A stretch of DNA of 64,000 bases from Nitrospinaceae bacterium (GCA_965237905.1 OZ250172.1:512001-576000), one strand, 5' to 3'. Counted from the stretch's first letter, positions 29,126 through 49,680 are shown. Program-made: numbers and translations. Notes: generated by a model not told the origin, from the sequence alone.

Positions 29126-30757
29126 ATGGATTCCCATTCTCCGGAAAACATCGCACACACTCTGGAGCAACTGGCACGGGAGCGGGCCGGGGCCGATGCC
29201 ATCATCGTTCCCCGCAGTGGATCGATTGCCAAAATTACCTTTCAGCAACTCAATCAGGACGCTAACCGGCTGGCCGATGGTTTGCGCGGCACCGGCATGG
29301 CGAAGGGCGACCGGATATTGATGATGGTGCCTCCGGGCATCGATTTCATCGCCCTCACGTTTGCCCTGTTCAAACTGGGAGCGGTTCCCGTGTTGATCGA
29401 TCCCGGCCTGGGCCGCCGCAATGTTTTGAATTGCATTGCCAACGCCCAACCCCGGGGCATGATCGCCGTGCCTCTGGCCCATGTAGCGCGCAAGATATTT
29501 CCCAAAGCGTTTAAAGGTATCGAATTGAACGTGACGGTGGGGCGGCGATGGTTCTGGGGCGGCACGACGTTGAAAACGATTCGTAGACACGGCGATACCA
29601 ATTTCCAATCCGCACAGGTGGCGCCGGACGCCGCCGCCGCCATTCTGTTTACCAGCGGCAGTACCGGTCCTTCCAAGGGTGTGCTGTACAGCCACCGCAT
29701 GTTCTACCAACAAGTAGAGTTACTGCGCCGACTGTTTCACATTGAACAAGGGGAAATGGACCTGCCCACCTTCCCGCTGTTCGTCCTGTTCGGCGTGGCG
29801 CTGGGCATGACCTGCGTGATTCCGGACATGGACCCGACCCGTCCCGCCGGGGTGGACCCGGAAAAAATAATCGAACACATCAAGGAGCACAACATTACCA
29901 ATAGTTTCGGGTCGCCGGCGTTATGGAACACCGTTTCGCGGTACTGCCTGGATCAAAAAGTTCAGCTCCCGACGCTTAAGCGAATATTGATGGCGGGTGC
30001 GCCGGTGACGGGCAGTCTGCTGGAACGATTCGACCGCATCCTGTCCAAAGACGCGCTGATCCATACCCCGTACGGCGCGACGGAAGCGTTGCCGGTCGCC
30101 GCCCTCTCCCACCGCGAAATCCTCAACGAAACCTGGCAACAAACGCGAGAAGGCAAAGGAACGTGCGTCGGGCGGGCGGTGGACGGATTGACACTCAAAA
30201 TAATAAAAATCACCGACGACGCGATTGACGAATGGGACGATTCACTGGCAGTCCCCAATGGCACCATCGGCGAGGTGGTGGTGCAAAGTCCTTGGGTGAC
30301 GCGCCAGTATTTCAATCTGGAAAACGCCACGCGCCTGGCCAAGATTCGCGACGGAGAAAATTTCTGGCACCGCATGGGGGATGTCGGTTATCTGGACGAT
30401 GAAAATCGTTTATGGTTTTGCGGACGGAAGAGTCACCGCGTCCAAACCGCGGCAGGCACCCTGTTCACGATTCCCTGCGAGGCGATTTTCAACACGCACG
30501 AAAAAGTGAAACGGTCCGCCCTGGTGGGAGTTGGTTCGAAAGAAAACCAGACCCCGGTCATCGTGATTGAAGCGGAGGGAGCGGTCGATCAGAAGGCTCT
30601 CACTGAAGAATTATTACAACTCGGCGCGTCGCACGCCATCACCCAACCGATCCGACAGGTGTTGTATCACTCGGCATTTCCTGTAGACATCCGCCACAAT
30701 GCCAAAATCGGCCGCGAACAACTCACCCGTTGGGCGGAAACCCTGCCCTCTCCCTGA
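29126..30757 (+). CDS. OleC-like AMP-forming ligase (olefin beta-lactone synthetase family)
   Basis: FTSGSTGPSKG, DLPTFPLF, DMDPTRP, TPYGATE, WHRMGD, DIRHNAKI. Confidence 0.8.
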   Translation: MDSHSPENIAHTLEQLARERAGADAIIVPRSGSIAKITFQQLNQDANRLADGLRGTGMAKGDRILMMVPPGIDFIALTFALFKLGAVPVLIDPGLGRRNVLNCIANAQPRGMIAVPLAHVARKIFPKAFKGIELNVTVGRRWFWGGTTLKTIRRHGDTNFQSAQVAPDAAAAILFTSGSTGPSKGVLYSHRMFYQQVELLRRLFHIEQGEMDLPTFPLFVLFGVALGMTCVIPDMDPTRPAGVDPEKIIEHIKEHNITNSFGSPALWNTVSRYCLDQKVQLPTLKRILMAGAPVTGSLLERFDRILSKDALIHTPYGATEALPVAALSHREILNETWQQTREGKGTCVGRAVDGLTLKIIKITDDAIDEWDDSLAVPNGTIGEVVVQSPWVTRQYFNLENATRLAKIRDGENFWHRMGDVGYLDDENRLWFCGRKSHRVQTAAGTLFTIPCEAIFNTHEKVKRSALVGVGSKENQTPVIVIEAEGAVDQKALTEELLQLGASHAITQPIRQVLYHSAFPVDIRHNAKIGREQLTRWAETLPSP

Positions 30758-36052: not shown

Positions 36053-37028
36053 TTACCCCTTCAACATGTCGAGCGTGAGGCCTTCCTGGGAGAGGATCAT
36101 CTCCAGTGTGCTTTTGGGACCGATGGCTTTCAGGTATTTTTTGGTCTGCTCAAAAATATTGGCCAGTTTGAAATCGCTGTAAGTCGGCTCATGATGATAA
36201 AAGGCGATTTTCTTCACATTCGCCTCCAGGGCAATGTCCACGCCGATAAACGTGGAGCTTGTGTCCCCAATCTTCTTTTTCGATTCCCTCAATGAACGTG
36301 TATTGGGAGTCGAACACCAGTAAGTCGGCATCCTTGAAAAATTCGATGGTGGGCTTTAGGTTTTCATCCCCCAAGTCTTTATACTCCGAGTCGGTCGCGT
36401 AAATAAAAGACTTCCCCCGATACTCCACCCGGTAGCCGAAACACTGCCCGGGATGGTTCATTTCATGCCAGGTGATGCGGACATCCCCCAGCACGCATTC
36501 TTTCCGGTCCACCAGGGAAACCATATCGATATCGGCCTGACAGGAATCGAAAGACACCGGAAAATAATCAAAATGCTGTTGGCCGATCAACCGTTTTTCC
36601 AAGTGGGGATGAGAACCGTAAATCTTAAACCGGTTGCCTTCTCTATAAAAGGGGACAAAAAACGGGATGCCCAGGATATGGTCCCAATGGGTATGAGACA
36701 AAAACAGGTGCGCTTCGCCCTGCCCTTTTCCGAACTCCTGTTCCAGAAGATGGTTGCCCAGAACCCGGAGGCCCGATCCGCCGTCAAAAATCACATGATG
36801 GCCGCCCACCTTAAGGTAGACGCATGAGGAATTTCCACCATAACAACTTTTCAAATGATCGGGAAGGCTGTCCACAAACGCTTCGCGCGAGGCTGCATCT
36901 TTGAGGTTTTCCGGACTGGCCTGCTCCAGGGCCTTGACCAGCTTCTCGCGCACGTCCTGCCCCACCATCGGACTGGGAATGGAGCCCCGGACGCCATAAA
37001 ATGTAACCAGGAACGGCAGTTGGTCCAT
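36053..37028 (-). pseudogene. MBL-fold metallo-hydrolase, frameshifted
   Basis: GVRGSIP, SHTHWDH, DSQY; extra A near 36259-36260 splits WGH|SSTF; second frame has YHHEP. Confidence 0.85.
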
Positions 37029-37134
37029 AGTCTGCAAATGAAGGAAAGTAGAGGTTCGTTGCCTGTTTCAACGGAACTTGGCCAGGGTGAGAAGAATCCC
37101 CGTATTCAGCGCAATTTATTATACTTGGGATGGC

Positions 37135-40295: not shown

Positions 40296-40340
40296 TGGAT
40301 TTAGAAATGCTGTTTTTTGAAACCAATCACGGAGGTTTCC

Positions 40341-42380
40341 TTGGCTAAAGAAAGAGTCCTCATTGTCGATGACGAAAAAAATATAGTCTCCTCTCTTCAG
40401 GAGATATTAAACGACGAGGGGTATGATATCGTCACAGCTGAAGACGGGTTGGACGCCCTTGAAATAGTACAGTCCGAGCCCCCGGATCTGGTGCTGTTGG
40501 ATATCTGGATTCCGGGCATGGACGGGATTGAAGTATTGCAGGCCATCAAAACCTATCACCCTGAAATCGAAGTATTGGTGATGTCCGGCCACGGAACCAT
40601 CGATACCGCCGTGAAAGCGACCAAGCTGGGAGCCTACGACTTTATTGAGAAACCGTTTTCCCTGAATCAACTGGTCCTGTCCGTCGAGAGAGCTCTCAAA
40701 CAAAGAAAAGGCCGGATGAACGGAAGCGGCAAACATGACGCCGCTCAGCACGAACTTCCCCACTGTTTTGAAATGATGGTCGAAGTCAAGAAAGCGGTGA
40801 CCCGAGCGTCTAAAACCAATGCCCCCATCCTGATCCACGGTGAAATGGGGACGGGTAAGGAATATATCGCGCAGGCCATTCACCATAAGAGCAAAAAGTC
40901 CAATTTTCCCCTTCACAAAATCAATTGCGCACTCCGGTCCATGCCGAAAATCCAAATCGAACTGTTTACCCATCAGGATGAAAAAGGCCAGGAAACGAAA
41001 CCAACCCGTGGAGGCGCCGGGAAGAAGGCGGTGTATTTAAAAAATATTGATTCCATGAGCCAGGACCTTCAGGTAAAACTGGCAACCGCCTTAAAGTCCA
41101 CCTCTCCCGGAAAACCGGAGGGCTTTATTCCAGACAGGATTTTTGCCTCTTCTACAAAAGACTTGGAGGCTATGGTTGGGAAAGGAGAGTTTCATTCTGA
41201 CCTGTATGAAACCTTGAAAGAAAACAGCATCAACGTGCCGCCTTTAAGAGATAACCGGGCCCTGATCCCAACCCTGGTGGACGAATATTTTGAAGATTTG
41301 GAGAACAAGGGCAAAGTCGTTTGCAAAAACTTCAACGAAGAAACCATGCGGGTTCTTTGTGAATACGACTGGCCGGAAAACTTCAAGGAACTGCGTTCTG
41401 TCCTGGACCAGATTGCCCGGACCGTCCACCCGGATGAAGAAATCACCTTGAAGGACTTATCGGCCCTGATCAGGCAAACCCGACACCCACACCAGACAAA
41501 ACCAAATACATCCAAAGGCAAGAAGGGAGACCGCCCGCTTCAGCGCACTTTGAAGCGCAGTGTGGTGCTGTGTGGACGCGGTCTGCATTCCGGAATCAAA
41601 ACCGGCCTCATCATGCAACCCTTGCCTCCGGGAAGCGGAATAATTTTCGGTGATATTTCCAGCGGAAACACCATCCCGGCCAAGGTGGAAAACGTGCAAT
41701 CCACGGAATACGCCACCAGCCTGCGCAAGGGCTACGCATCCGTCTCCACGATCGAACATATTATGGCCACCCTCCACATGTACCGGGTCCATAACCTTTT
41801 GATCAAAATTGGAGACGAGGCCCCCGTGATGGATGGATCCGCCAAAGATTTCTGCCAATTGATCGAAGATGGAGATTTCGAGGAACAGGATGCGCTTTAC
41901 GAAGAACTGGTGATTGATAAAACGTACACCTTCGGGTCAAAAGAAGAAGGTGGAGCACATATTTCCATTGAGCCCTATGATGGCTTCAAAGTGAGTTACC
42001 ATATGGAATATCCGGCACCCATAGGGATCATGGAGCACACCTTTGAGTTTAAAGGGGCTGAGAGCTTCAAAGAAGAAATCGCACCGGCACGCACCTTCGG
42101 GTTTGTGAAAGATGTGGCCATGCTGAATAAAATGGGTTTCGGGGTGGGCGGTAAGCTGGATAACTTTATCCTGCTGGGGGACGAAAAAGTCCTCAACACC
42201 ACATTGCGGTATGACAACGAATTCGCACGCCACAAAATCCTGGATATTCTCGGGGATTTCTATCTGCTGGGAAAACCGATCCGCGGCTATATCAAAGCTC
42301 ATAAATCAGGACACACCCAAAACATCGGACTCCTGAAAACCATCAAGGAAGACCTGGCTCAAGCGGTGCCCGTTCATTGA
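40341..42380 (+). CDS. lpxC: receiver + degenerate sigma54-type AAA+ + LpxC deacetylase fusion
   Basis: REC (VDDE, LLDIW, EKPF); GEMGTGKE; from ~41541 LpxC (QRTL..GRGLHSG, STIEH, ARTFG, RHKILD..GD, SGH); TTG start after GGAGG. Confidence 0.9.
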   Translation: MAKERVLIVDDEKNIVSSLQEILNDEGYDIVTAEDGLDALEIVQSEPPDLVLLDIWIPGMDGIEVLQAIKTYHPEIEVLVMSGHGTIDTAVKATKLGAYDFIEKPFSLNQLVLSVERALKQRKGRMNGSGKHDAAQHELPHCFEMMVEVKKAVTRASKTNAPILIHGEMGTGKEYIAQAIHHKSKKSNFPLHKINCALRSMPKIQIELFTHQDEKGQETKPTRGGAGKKAVYLKNIDSMSQDLQVKLATALKSTSPGKPEGFIPDRIFASSTKDLEAMVGKGEFHSDLYETLKENSINVPPLRDNRALIPTLVDEYFEDLENKGKVVCKNFNEETMRVLCEYDWPENFKELRSVLDQIARTVHPDEEITLKDLSALIRQTRHPHQTKPNTSKGKKGDRPLQRTLKRSVVLCGRGLHSGIKTGLIMQPLPPGSGIIFGDISSGNTIPAKVENVQSTEYATSLRKGYASVSTIEHIMATLHMYRVHNLLIKIGDEAPVMDGSAKDFCQLIEDGDFEEQDALYEELVIDKTYTFGSKEEGGAHISIEPYDGFKVSYHMEYPAPIGIMEHTFEFKGAESFKEEIAPARTFGFVKDVAMLNKMGFGVGGKLDNFILLGDEKVLNTTLRYDNEFARHKILDILGDFYLLGKPIRGYIKAHKSGHTQNIGLLKTIKEDLAQAVPVH

Positions 42381-45155: not shown

Positions 45156-45458
45156 ATGCCCCACTCGAACACAGAATCCCTAACGCTGTCCCGCTTGGAA
45201 GACCTCAGGGACACCGCACGGAAACTCTCGATTGAAATCCTGTTCGCCGACTTGTCCGACCCGGAAATTCCCACTCAAAGCGGTACCTGTAAAGTGCGCG
45301 GTGAGGATTTGATCGTGGTGGACAAACGATTGTCGGCTCAACGTCAGATCGAGGTGATCCTTAACATCTTCCAACAATTCGATTGGGATGACGTCTATGT
45401 CGCTTCCTGGATTCGGGAGCACCTTGATAATCCCAAACTCACCGGCCTCACTTCATGA
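45156..45458 (+). CDS. hypothetical protein
   Basis: 100 aa in operon; overlaps next start (ATGA). Confidence 0.7.
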   Translation: MPHSNTESLTLSRLEDLRDTARKLSIEILFADLSDPEIPTQSGTCKVRGEDLIVVDKRLSAQRQIEVILNIFQQFDWDDVYVASWIREHLDNPKLTGLTS

Positions 45459-47212
45459 CTCTGCTCAGCCAAAATTTACCGGAACAAAGGCGCGGCAAAC
45501 TCAAAGCCTTGCTCACTCAGGGCAAACTCGTCCGCGTCATGGAAGCCCACAACGGTCTCAGCGGCATCGTCGCCGACACCACCTGCGTGGAAGGAAAATC
45601 CGGCGACCAGTCGGTCACCCGTCAGTTCGACGCCCTCTGGGAAAGCAGTCTGACCGATTCCGCTTCCAAGGGTCATCCGGATATTGAAGTGGTCAGCTTC
45701 GATTCCCGCCTGCATACCATTCAGGAAATCCTGACCGTCACGCAAAAACCGATGATCGTTGACGGCGATACCGGCGGCGACCCCAACACCTTCGAGTACA
45801 TGGTGTCCAAAATGGAACGGGCCGGCGTCTCGGCAGTCATCATCGAGGACAAAGTATTTCCCAAACGCAACAGCCTGGAAGCCGGTACCAGTCAGGTTCT
45901 GCAGGAACCCGAAGTGTTCGCGCAGAAAATCAAGCGCGGAAAAAAAGTGCAGGCCACCGATGAGTTCATGATCATCGCCCGCATTGAAAGCCTGATCGCC
46001 GGCACCGGAATGGAAGACGCGCTCGCCCGCGCCCGAATTTATCTGCAGGCGGGGGTAGACGGCATCATGATCCACTCCAAGTCTAAACAGCCGGATGAGA
46101 TCATGGAGTTTGCCGGGAAATACCAGAGTCTCCTCAAAGAACTCGAGTTGAGTAAACCCCTCGTGTGTGTGCCCACCACCTACAACAATATCCTTGAGGA
46201 AGAACTGCAGGCCGCAGGATTCCAGATCATCATTTACGCCAACCATCTGTTACGCTCCGCGTATAAAGCGATGCGCGAAACCGCCAAATCTATTCTGTCG
46301 AACCAACGCTCGCTCGAAGCCGACCCCCTGTGCGCCCCGGTGCGTGAAATATTCGATGCCGTCGGTTTTCTGGACGTTAAGGAAAAAGACCAGCAGGATG
46401 AGACCAATACCAATATCCCGGTCATCATCCCCGCCGCCGGAGAAGCGCCGGCCATCGCCCCTGTTCTCAAAAATACGCCCAAGGCCATGGCCGATATCGC
46501 CGGCAAAACCCTACTGGCCCGGCAGGCCCAAACCCTCAACCAGAACCATCTGACGGATATCACCGTGGTGACAGGTTACGCAGGCGATAAAATGAAGGGC
46601 GAAGGGATTTCCTTCCTGCAAAACAAGGATTACAAAAAGGGCACCGAACTGCACAGCCTGCTCACCGCCCAGGAAAAAATGCACAACGGATTTCTGATGC
46701 TGTACTCCGATATTCTCATTGAAAACCATGTGATCGCCCAATTGCTGGCGTCCCGGGAAGATATTGTGCTGGTGCTGGACAACTCCATTCAATACTTGGA
46801 ATCGGTGGAGGGCAAGGCGACCGATTACGTGATCAGCCGCAACCGGCGGAACCGGAACCGCCGAAGCATCAACTTCGATCACCAGAACACCCTTGCCAAA
46901 ATCGGTAAAAATATTGATCCGGCGTTAGCCACTCACGAGTTCATCGGCCTCGCCAAATTCTCAAAGACCGGAGCCGAACAGTTTCTTCAGACCTATCACG
47001 ACGTGTTGAAAAACCTGGAGGGCAAAGTCCAGGAAGCGGAGGACATTTCCCAGTTCCGCCTTACCGACCTGATTCAGGAGATGGTCGATCGTGGTTTCAA
47101 CGTCCATTACCTGGAAATCCACAAAGGCTGGCTGGAAATCCATTTTCCCAAAGACATCGAACAGGCCAACGAATTGTTCACCGTACAGGAACATCCCTCG
47201 GAAGTTATGTAG
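45455..47212 (+). CDS. pepM: phosphoenolpyruvate mutase fused to an NTP-transferase (LicC/PntC-like) domain
   Basis: EAHNGLS, DGDTG, PepM signature EDKVFPKRNS; C-terminal IIPAAG..PKAM, YSD, GWLEIH. Confidence 0.9.
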   Translation: MTLLSQNLPEQRRGKLKALLTQGKLVRVMEAHNGLSGIVADTTCVEGKSGDQSVTRQFDALWESSLTDSASKGHPDIEVVSFDSRLHTIQEILTVTQKPMIVDGDTGGDPNTFEYMVSKMERAGVSAVIIEDKVFPKRNSLEAGTSQVLQEPEVFAQKIKRGKKVQATDEFMIIARIESLIAGTGMEDALARARIYLQAGVDGIMIHSKSKQPDEIMEFAGKYQSLLKELELSKPLVCVPTTYNNILEEELQAAGFQIIIYANHLLRSAYKAMRETAKSILSNQRSLEADPLCAPVREIFDAVGFLDVKEKDQQDETNTNIPVIIPAAGEAPAIAPVLKNTPKAMADIAGKTLLARQAQTLNQNHLTDITVVTGYAGDKMKGEGISFLQNKDYKKGTELHSLLTAQEKMHNGFLMLYSDILIENHVIAQLLASREDIVLVLDNSIQYLESVEGKATDYVISRNRRNRNRRSINFDHQNTLAKIGKNIDPALATHEFIGLAKFSKTGAEQFLQTYHDVLKNLEGKVQEAEDISQFRLTDLIQEMVDRGFNVHYLEIHKGWLEIHFPKDIEQANELFTVQEHPSEVM

Positions 47213-49290: not shown

Positions 49291-49680
49291 TTATTTCATC
49301 TTTTCGCCTTCTTTCATCATGGTGTCCTTAGGCATGGTCCCTTCTTTATCCATCTTTTCGCCTTCTTTCATCATGGTGTCTTTAGGCATGGTCCCTTCTT
49401 TATCCATCTTTTCGCCTTCTTTCATCATGGTGTCCTTAGGCATGGTCCCTTCTTTATCCATCTTTTCGCCTTCTTTCATCATGGTGTCTTTAGGCATGGT
49501 CCCTTCTTTATCCATCTTTTCGCCTTCTTTCATCATGGTGTCTTTAGGCATGGTCCCTTCTTTATCCATCTTTTCGCCTTCTTTCATCATGGTGTCCTCG
49601 GTACAGGCCACACCCGACAACATCACTAACAAGGAAAGAATGACCAAATAAAAAGATTTGTTTTTAAGCATCGTTTTCAT
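49291..49680 (-). CDS. Met/Lys/Glu-rich tandem-repeat exported protein (MXKDX-repeat-like), probable lipoprotein
   Basis: signal peptide ending GVAC; (DTMMKEGEKMDKEGTMPK)x5 plus partial; RBS AGGGGG. Confidence 0.85.
   Translation of the reverse strand: MKTMLKNKSFYLVILSLLVMLSGVACTEDTMMKEGEKMDKEGTMPKDTMMKEGEKMDKEGTMPKDTMMKEGEKMDKEGTMPKDTMMKEGEKMDKEGTMPKDTMMKEGEKMDKEGTMPKDTMMKEGEKMK
49297..49596. repeat. 54-bp tandem repeat, ~5.5 near-identical copies
   Basis: period of 54 read directly; copies differ at one synonymous position. Confidence 0.95.

Follow-up and report, generated by a model that had tools for sequence, protein, structure and literature searches.

Receiver-LpxC fusion proteins of the Nitrospinota and the probable phosphorylation control of a lipid A enzyme

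LpxC carries out the committed step in the synthesis of lipid A, and in the enterobacteria it is controlled through FtsH/LapB/YejM proteolysis. A 64,000-nucleotide stretch of a Nitrospinaceae genome (GCA_965237905.1 OZ250172.1:512001-576000; the whole of it is called the window here, and its positions are counted from its first letter) contains a gene in which LpxC is preceded, in one reading frame, by a response-regulator receiver and by a degenerate AAA+ domain of the sigma54-activator type. Why should a biosynthetic enzyme carry the front part of a transcription factor, and which of the attached domains could control it? The initial annotation of the locus suggested that an enhancer-binding scaffold had been turned into a phosphorylation- or nucleotide-gated oligomerisation switch on the enzyme itself. 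One part of this proposal stands, for the intact and selected receiver and a conserved kinase make phosphorylation control probable; the other, the AAA+ scaffold as the switch, is at odds with the 48 of 146 family members that have no AAA+ domain. Taking all its possible forms together, we regard some phosphorylation control at the protein level as highly probable. To the specific version that we favour, namely that the fusion would be a response regulator with LpxC as its output, in which phosphorylation set by a kinase gates the enzyme through docking of the receiver, we give a little better than an even chance on the basis of sequence comparison and structural models.

The fusion gene and its distribution

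The gene is a single stop-free frame (Table 1), as first claimed, and Pfam places its domains in order: Response_reg at residues 6-115 (E 2e-33), Sigma54_activat at 145-297 (4e-23), AAA_lid_14 at 306-387 (4e-12) and LpxC at 401-669 (1e-79). All the motifs originally quoted for the three parts were found in their places. The LpxC part lies above the curated cut-offs (TIGR00325, 233 against 187 bits; Pfam PF03331, 268 against 27) and, when aligned to Pseudomonas aeruginosa LpxC, has the catalytic and zinc-binding residues E472-H473, H631-K632-x-x-D635 and H658, which we take to be the equivalents of E78, H79, H238, K239, D242 and H265 of Escherichia coli; its domain model has a root-mean-square deviation (rmsd) of about 2 Å to solved LpxC. 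The receiver pocket is complete, with D10-D11-E12, the phospho-acceptor D54 in LLDIW, S82 and K104-P105, and the receiver fold, in the model of a relative (from genome G048), matches the NtrC1 receiver with a Z of 23.6 and an rmsd of 1.2 Å over 125 residues. The AAA+ domain has its Walker A motif (GEMGTGKE), with ELFTHQDEKG at the position of the GAFTGA loop, YLKNID at Walker B, DLYETL at the arginine finger and WPENFKEL at sensor II. Of these marks of an active sigma54 enhancer-binding protein it retains Walker A and lacks GAFTGA, Walker B hhhhDE and the arginine finger; GAFTGA is present or near-canonical in all 10 paralogs of the host genome. In the full-length model the AAA+ domain is folded, with a predicted local distance difference test score (pLDDT) mostly above 90, and the linker at 380-395 falls below 50. 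NtrX is the best NCBIfam model for the receiver part; the whole-protein NtrX score (266) does not reach the cut-off of 600, and Pfam gives no match in the protein to HTH_8, the helix-turn-helix (HTH) that would be the C-terminal DNA-binding element of an NtrX. The LpxC-FabZ model, PRK13188, scores 204 against a cut-off of 465. By these sequence tests the protein belongs to the LpxC family, and is neither an NtrX nor an active enhancer-binding protein.

The whole 3.09 Mb single-contig host genome has one LpxC match, so the fusion is its sole lpxC, a point that the initial annotation had left to be checked. Since it is the sole copy and lpxA, lpxB and lpxK are encoded as well, the fusion is predicted to be an active deacetylase. 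No stop codon separates the AAA+ and LpxC domains, and an assembly artefact was rejected: both halves lie in a single open frame in 39 of the 41 genomes searched, the host included (of the other two, one match is cut at a contig end and one genome is without the gene), and one contig from a separate study crosses the AAA+/LpxC junction. The stops flagged in four of these genome matches are at the gene end, and in two runs from one sample, possibly the source sample, the gene is in one contig with zero differences. A separate internal start for LpxC was likewise rejected, the linker having no in-frame Met and the frames being continuous in relatives. At two loci outside the Nitrospinota (L074:3173-5670 and L078:6998-8268) the fusion appears as two open reading frames (ORFs), with apparent frameshifts, each in a single assembly, that are perhaps assembly errors.

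A search for the architecture in related genomes, which had been proposed from the outset, found the fusion to be standard in its phylum and present in others. Exactly one LpxC match occurs in 108 of 120 Nitrospinota genomes, and for 104 of these the frame has at least 460 amino acids (aa); three of the four shorter frames abut contig ends by their coordinates, and the fourth is that of G111. When 20 regions of the phylum were fetched, the receiver was in frame in 18 and the remaining 2 were cut by contig ends. In the Nitrospinota, lpxC normally takes this fused form. A scan of 1.84 billion representatives, sampled as 80 of 601 stretches, gave dozens more fusion clusters at 35-60% identity from at least six further phylum-level groups, the named members coming from Acidobacteriota (Thermoanaerobaculia), Binatota/Myxococcota, Thermodesulfobacteriota, Nitrospirota, Aminicenantes, Entotheonellia and Spirochaetota; in all five genomes checked outside the Nitrospinota the fusion is the only lpxC. 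Close homologs that bear names are from the Nitrospinaceae or Nitrospinota, and the database labels are just LpxC or NtrX. We found no published description of a receiver-LpxC fusion in the openly accessible literature searched; response-regulator census reviews, or signalling databases, could list this architecture. A 2025 review of LpxC control treats proteolysis, MurA binding and transcription, and a term search of its text found neither "fusion", "fused" nor "response regulator" (PMC12444477).

Domain decay and the ntrX slot

The domains differ in how faithfully they are kept. Our comparison set of 146 non-redundant family members was selected for both end domains, and losses of the receiver are hence uncountable in it; the frame lengths and fetched loci of the phylum, given above, are the less biased check. 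Within the set, 56 members are receiver-AAA-LpxC, 42 receiver-AAA-HTH-LpxC, 4 receiver-HTH-LpxC and 44 receiver-LpxC. The receiver and LpxC are thus still there in the 48 members without AAA+, and 46 have an HTH remnant before LpxC. The statement that LpxC has replaced the HTH is accordingly right for the genus of the window protein and wrong for the family. In a tree of the LpxC domain (133 rows, quick search, with P0140 counted as fused, without a proteobacterial outgroup and with near-duplicates, split ORFs and truncated ORFs left out), a long branch with 100 support in the Shimodaira-Hasegawa-like approximate likelihood ratio test (SH-aLRT) parts all 45 unfused sequences from all the fused ones. 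The fusion probably has a single origin, which the tree fits and does not prove. The tree further indicates that AAA+ has been lost at least four times, because short forms neighbour long ones: the short form of G048 lies inside the Nitrospinales, others lie beside long sisters in families f5 and f7, and P0138/P0137 and P0141/P0126 are short/long pairs, each inside a clade of 100% SH-aLRT. Separate losses of the HTH appear in the same tree, for example in the genus of the window protein as opposed to G011, and in G027 as opposed to G075.

What is left of the middle domains no longer resembles a working activator. Under strict definitions the GAFTGA, Walker B DE and arginine-finger motifs each occur in 0 of the 98 AAA+-bearing members; Walker A is present in 94, the lid motif in 86 and the sensor-II Lys in 88. 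The NtrX recognition-helix motif is found in 0 of the 46 HTH-bearing fusions as against 4 of 5 complete stand-alone NtrX proteins. In the HTH remnants (L037, L050 and 44 others) the first helices are kept and the recognition helix is drifting, and a Trp nearly always stands at the position of Phe/Tyr in stand-alone NtrX; the remnant is possibly a dimer module. At the two ends of the protein, D54 is conserved in 144 of the 146 members, S/T82 in all 146 and K104 in 145, with D10, D11, D54, S82 and K104 all within 140-146, and each of the six LpxC catalytic residues is present in every member. The same contrast is seen in the ratio of nonsynonymous to synonymous change (dN/dS): Nei-Gojobori means over 10 genomes of the window protein's genus, from pairs that are not independent, are 0.038 for the receiver, 0.040 for LpxC, 0.120 for the AAA+ core, 0.110 for the lid and 0.36-0.39 for the linkers (0.39 for aa 379-399). 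The receiver is therefore under the same constraint as the enzyme, and the AAA+ domain evolves at roughly three times the receiver's rate. It is preserved as a fold, yet is dispensable across the family. With a dN/dS of 0.11-0.12 and Walker A so widely kept, it is not neutral, and could have a secondary role in nucleotide binding or as a dimer scaffold in this lineage.

The initial annotation saw no kinase in the window, which nothing contradicts; the likely partner lies outside it. Of 9 deep-branching Nitrospinota loci, 8 have an H-box kinase of about 740-750 aa directly upstream of the fusion. Among the matches listed from the genome scan, 13 of 35 fusion loci have one no more than about 1 kb upstream. 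These counts are motif-based and hence lower bounds. All 18 such kinases tested have the same single best match in the host, a 770-aa protein (C1:458380-460692) with 33-49% identity over the full length, situated 94 kb from the fusion. This protein has the domains NtrY_N-HAMP-PAS-HisKA-HATPase and an intact H-box. It is preceded by a DUF4390 gene, the pair lying at C1:457665-460692 (L132:5666-8693), and it is an orphan, none of the 42 receiver matches of the genome being near it. Orthologs are present in 105 of 120 genomes of the phylum and in 55 of the 57 high-quality ones. Among the 42 host receiver matches the fusion alone has the DIW/SGH signature of NtrX. Each of the five genomes whose lpxC is unfused has a stand-alone NtrX following the same kinase, and for each of the five stand-alone NtrX receivers tested the fusion is the first match in the host genome; the fusion therefore fills the ntrX slot. 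Walker B is intact in 6 of 6 stand-alone NtrX loci, with a GAFTGA-type loop in 4 of 6, so most of the AAA+ decay came after the fusion. From orthology and synteny the NtrY-like kinase is likely to be the partner of the fusion, and we infer that the ancestor was a whole NtrX (receiver-AAA-HTH) joined to LpxC.

Receiver contact, mechanism and alternatives

The AlphaFold2 model of the natural 453-aa receiver-LpxC protein of G048 has a predicted template modelling score (pTM) of 0.86 in spite of its disordered linker. Rough arithmetic gives 0.57-0.65 if LpxC alone is placed and 0.80-0.88 if both domains are placed, and the model therefore appears to place receiver and LpxC together. A candidate surface emerges when the fused sequences are compared with the small set of 45 unfused LpxCs. 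In the fused enzymes, alternating positions of the domain-I hairpin go from polar to aliphatic (V/I at 409 in 91%, I/V at 424 in 86%), 98% have Gly422 and 96% have Lys489 (where 74% of the unfused have Glu), and Leu487 is favoured; in the domain-II sheet no polar position shifts as strongly. At 409, 422, 424 and 489 the residues of P. aeruginosa LpxC are R, Y, T and E. Because of the strand alternation, and of LpxC architecture, this patch on the domain-I sheet is a candidate for an outward receiver-docking face. A separate-chain complex prediction of receiver (aa 1-126) and LpxC (aa 398-676) scored 0.01 without folded controls, and is counted neither way.

Response regulators with enzyme or adaptor outputs, such as CheB, PleD/WspR and RssB, are among the closest known systems; in CheB, inhibition by a receiver packed onto the catalytic domain is relieved by phosphorylation. 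They share the receiver-linker-enzyme layout of the fusion; their outputs are signalling enzymes or adaptors, whereas that of the fusion is a biosynthetic enzyme, at the committed step of a pathway that is usually essential. In the mechanism that we propose, ntrX as a whole would have been fused to lpxC, probably once, after which the sigma54-activating and DNA-reading parts would have decayed, and the transcriptional control of lpxC by NtrYX would have been turned into direct control of the enzyme. The NtrY-like kinase/phosphatase would set the phosphorylation of D54, and activity would be gated by the receiver in its docking place, the beta-sheet of LpxC domain I. An unphosphorylated receiver would restrain LpxC and phosphorylation would lift the restraint, as in CheB, and raise output; this is the weakest step, and its sign is chosen by analogy, because the Desulfovibrio polarity is supposed to be retained. 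The AAA+ remnant of the window protein would serve as a folded spacer or dimer scaffold, maybe still binding nucleotide. That an old transcriptional circuit, with NtrY/NtrX as activator of lpxC, collapsed, probably once, into a phospho-gated enzyme, with the AAA+ remnant as a nucleotide input in some lineages, is in our estimate an even bet.

Several observations weigh against gating by a docked receiver. The phospho-acceptor Asp is replaced by Ser or Asn in two related fusions, P0140 (a fusion with a degenerate receiver) and P0141, which may be natural uncoupled variants. The H-box kinase adjoins the fusion in 0 of 11 Nitrospinales loci checked, and it was not found in G048 (91% complete), the very source of the short protein. 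The docking prediction for that protein is one model from a relative, without a control fold, and the model of the full-length window protein (pTM 0.54) does not demonstrate docking of the receiver on LpxC, a packing of the receiver on the AAA+ domain fitting it equally well or better. The unfused reference set is small, and the sheet patch could come from common descent within one clade, from a homodimer or from a different partner. Mean-field covariation over 473 receiver and LpxC pairs (effective number about 130; 308 columns) gave no coherent interdomain contacts; some intradomain pairs were plausible, and the interdomain ones were scattered, with one column dominating. In Rhodobacter sphaeroides without ntrYX, lpxC transcripts rise 8.8-fold (PMC7240162), a negative and indirect effect that makes the polarity uncertain. 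Finally, the host encodes a LapA/LapB-like protein below the NCBIfam cut-offs, and proteolytic control is thus possible.

This last point leads to the most serious competitor, to which we give a distinctly minor chance: that phosphorylation governs the amount or location of LpxC, either through FtsH/Lon degradation with the LapB-like protein or through tethering by the membrane kinase. LpxC is often under proteolysis or membrane recruitment, according to a recent review (PMC12444477), and the host protein in question has a LapA-TPR-Zn-ribbon layout (438 aa, C1:1527698-1529014, L169) with a weak LapA domain and a Zn ribbon of the LapB type. The conservation of receiver and kinase would fit this possibility as well as gating. 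The C-termini, though, vary over 51 loci and have no tail in common that looks like a degron, a search of the host genome (96% complete) gave no YejM-family match, and the predicted docking and the sheet patch speak for contact between receiver and enzyme, even if such contact might mask a protease site. It seems to us unlikely that the dead AAA+ domain is the switch, with phosphorylation or nucleotide driving an oligomerisation that turns LpxC on or off. Its confidently predicted fold, the purifying selection on it and the persistence of Walker A and the lid motif speak for such a role, and there are crystals of Brucella NtrX, the best relative with a solved structure, with ATP and ADP; the domain is nonetheless missing in 48 of 146 members whose receiver and LpxC stay, the losses are nested beside AAA+-bearing sisters, the arginine-finger motif is gone in all 98 remaining cases, and it changes about three times as fast as the receiver.

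Somewhat more doubtful again is a structural partnership, in which the receiver would stabilise or dimerise the LpxC of this clade, phosphorylation would exert no meaningful control and the kinase would have another purpose. The receiver could be necessary for folding if it covers a hydrophobic patch, and the two members without the Asp and the unlinked kinase of the Nitrospinales would then find an explanation; the near-invariance across phyla of five phosphorylation-site residues would not, nor would a kinase with an intact H-box, kept in nearly all high-quality genomes, in a host with no other NtrX-type receiver. Very improbable, to our mind, is a double function as enzyme and transcription factor, by which the protein would autoregulate envelope genes. 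The Fis-type HTH region of 46 members recalls such a function, but the window protein is without an HTH, the recognition-helix and GAFTGA motifs are absent from the fusions, and no sigma54-type site lies upstream of or inside the gene (46 matches to the pattern against 62 expected). Promoter and terminator scans were also at chance level (7 against 5.3 expected, and 10 against 7.1). The 24 runs listed include none of RNA, a result with no bearing on expression.

Known systems, other features and significance

A close functional parallel to the proposed gating of LpxC by its receiver is in Desulfovibrio. There, lpxC is the single target of D. vulgaris DVU2934, which is listed as ntrX with a receiver-AAA-DNA-binding-domain layout and the kinase DVU2931 (PMC3333781 and its Table S1); in D. 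alaskensis a kinase mutant raises lpxC, which has a sigma54 promoter, and the authors infer that the kinase reduces the activity of the regulator (PMC4045070). These pairs (DVU2931/DVU2934; Dde_3000/Dde_3003) resemble the fusion in that a regulator named NtrX and a kinase are aimed at lpxC, a link made through the ntrX label. The Desulfovibrio regulator is a separate protein of sigma54-dependent transcription, whereas here it is built into the enzyme, with GAFTGA, Walker B, arginine finger and HTH all lost. The alphaproteobacterial NtrYX systems of Brucella, R. sphaeroides and Caulobacter crescentus share the NtrY_N kinase and an envelope role, and Brucella NtrX (PDB 5M7N) is the best solved-sequence match to the N-terminal part of the fusion (E 2e-61). 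Their NtrX proteins are DNA-binding, with broad regulons and an indirect influence on lpxC, and that of Brucella retains the Walker B DE and the DLFHRL arginine, both gone in the fusion. C. crescentus NtrY is chiefly a phosphatase (10.1101/2021.04.17.440287). Bound proteins alter LpxC activity elsewhere too: LapB cuts it by about 80% in vitro and MurA stimulates it (PMC12444477, PMC9995270). LapB, FtsH and YejM in E. coli and MurA in P. aeruginosa are separate proteins without a phosphorylation input, in contrast to a partner that is covalently attached and kinase-linked. LpxC-FabZ (PRK13188) also joins LpxC to an extra domain, but in that case a metabolic enzyme has been added at the C-terminus.

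The neighbours of the fusion gene on the same strand are greA- and trmB-like upstream and purN-, lolA- and rseP-like downstream (Pfam; the gene names are our reading). Other features of the window close the table.

Table 1. Positions of the fusion gene, its parts and other features of the window
Feature	Position	Strand	Basis or remark
Fusion gene, receiver-(ATPase-dead AAA+)-LpxC, 679 aa	40341..42380	+	Single stop-free frame, TTG start
Ribosome-binding site GGAGG, 5 nucleotides before TTG	40331..40335	+	Sequence; same start position in relatives
NtrX-type receiver, aa 3-122; D54 codon 40500-40502; S82, K104	40347..40706	+	Pfam PF00072, NCBIfam
Degenerate sigma54-activator AAA+ core, aa 141-302; Walker A 40839-40862	40761..41246	+	Pfam, motifs
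AAA+ lid, aa 303-378; sensor-II Arg to Lys	41247..41474	+	PF25601
Disordered linker, aa 379-399; site of deleted ancestral Fis-type HTH	41475..41537	+	pLDDT; HTH in relatives
LpxC deacetylase domain, aa 400-670; E472, H473, H631, K632, D635, H658	41538..42350	+	TIGR00325, motifs
Fusion-specific patch, LpxC domain-I beta-sheet: V409, G422, I424, L487, K489	41565..41807	+	Candidate receiver-docking surface
AMP-dependent ligase, presumably OleC-like (olefin biosynthesis)	29126-30757	+	By appearance
Overlapping ORFs 36189-37037 and 36053-36331	36053-37037	-	By appearance a frameshift-split metallo-beta-lactamase-fold gene
Phosphoenolpyruvate mutase and nucleotidyl (NTP)-transferase domain fusion	45455-47212	+	Pfam; suggests phosphonate biosynthesis
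Small predicted lipoprotein	49291-49680	-	Near-perfect 18-residue Met/Lys/Asp-rich repeats

The balance of lipid A outside the Proteobacteria is largely an open matter, and the fusion offers a test, within one protein, of direct two-component control over LpxC. The Nitrospinota are the main marine nitrite oxidisers, and common lineages of soil and sediment have the fusion as well. NtrY, about whose signal there is debate, gains a single measurable output, and the four architectures form a natural deletion series, a record of a transcription factor becoming an enzyme switch. LpxC is a well-studied antibiotic target, and the predicted docking face may mark a regulatory surface on it. If gating by the receiver is true, a further mode of LpxC control would stand beside proteolysis, partner binding and transcription, and the enzyme would be shown to have an allosteric site.

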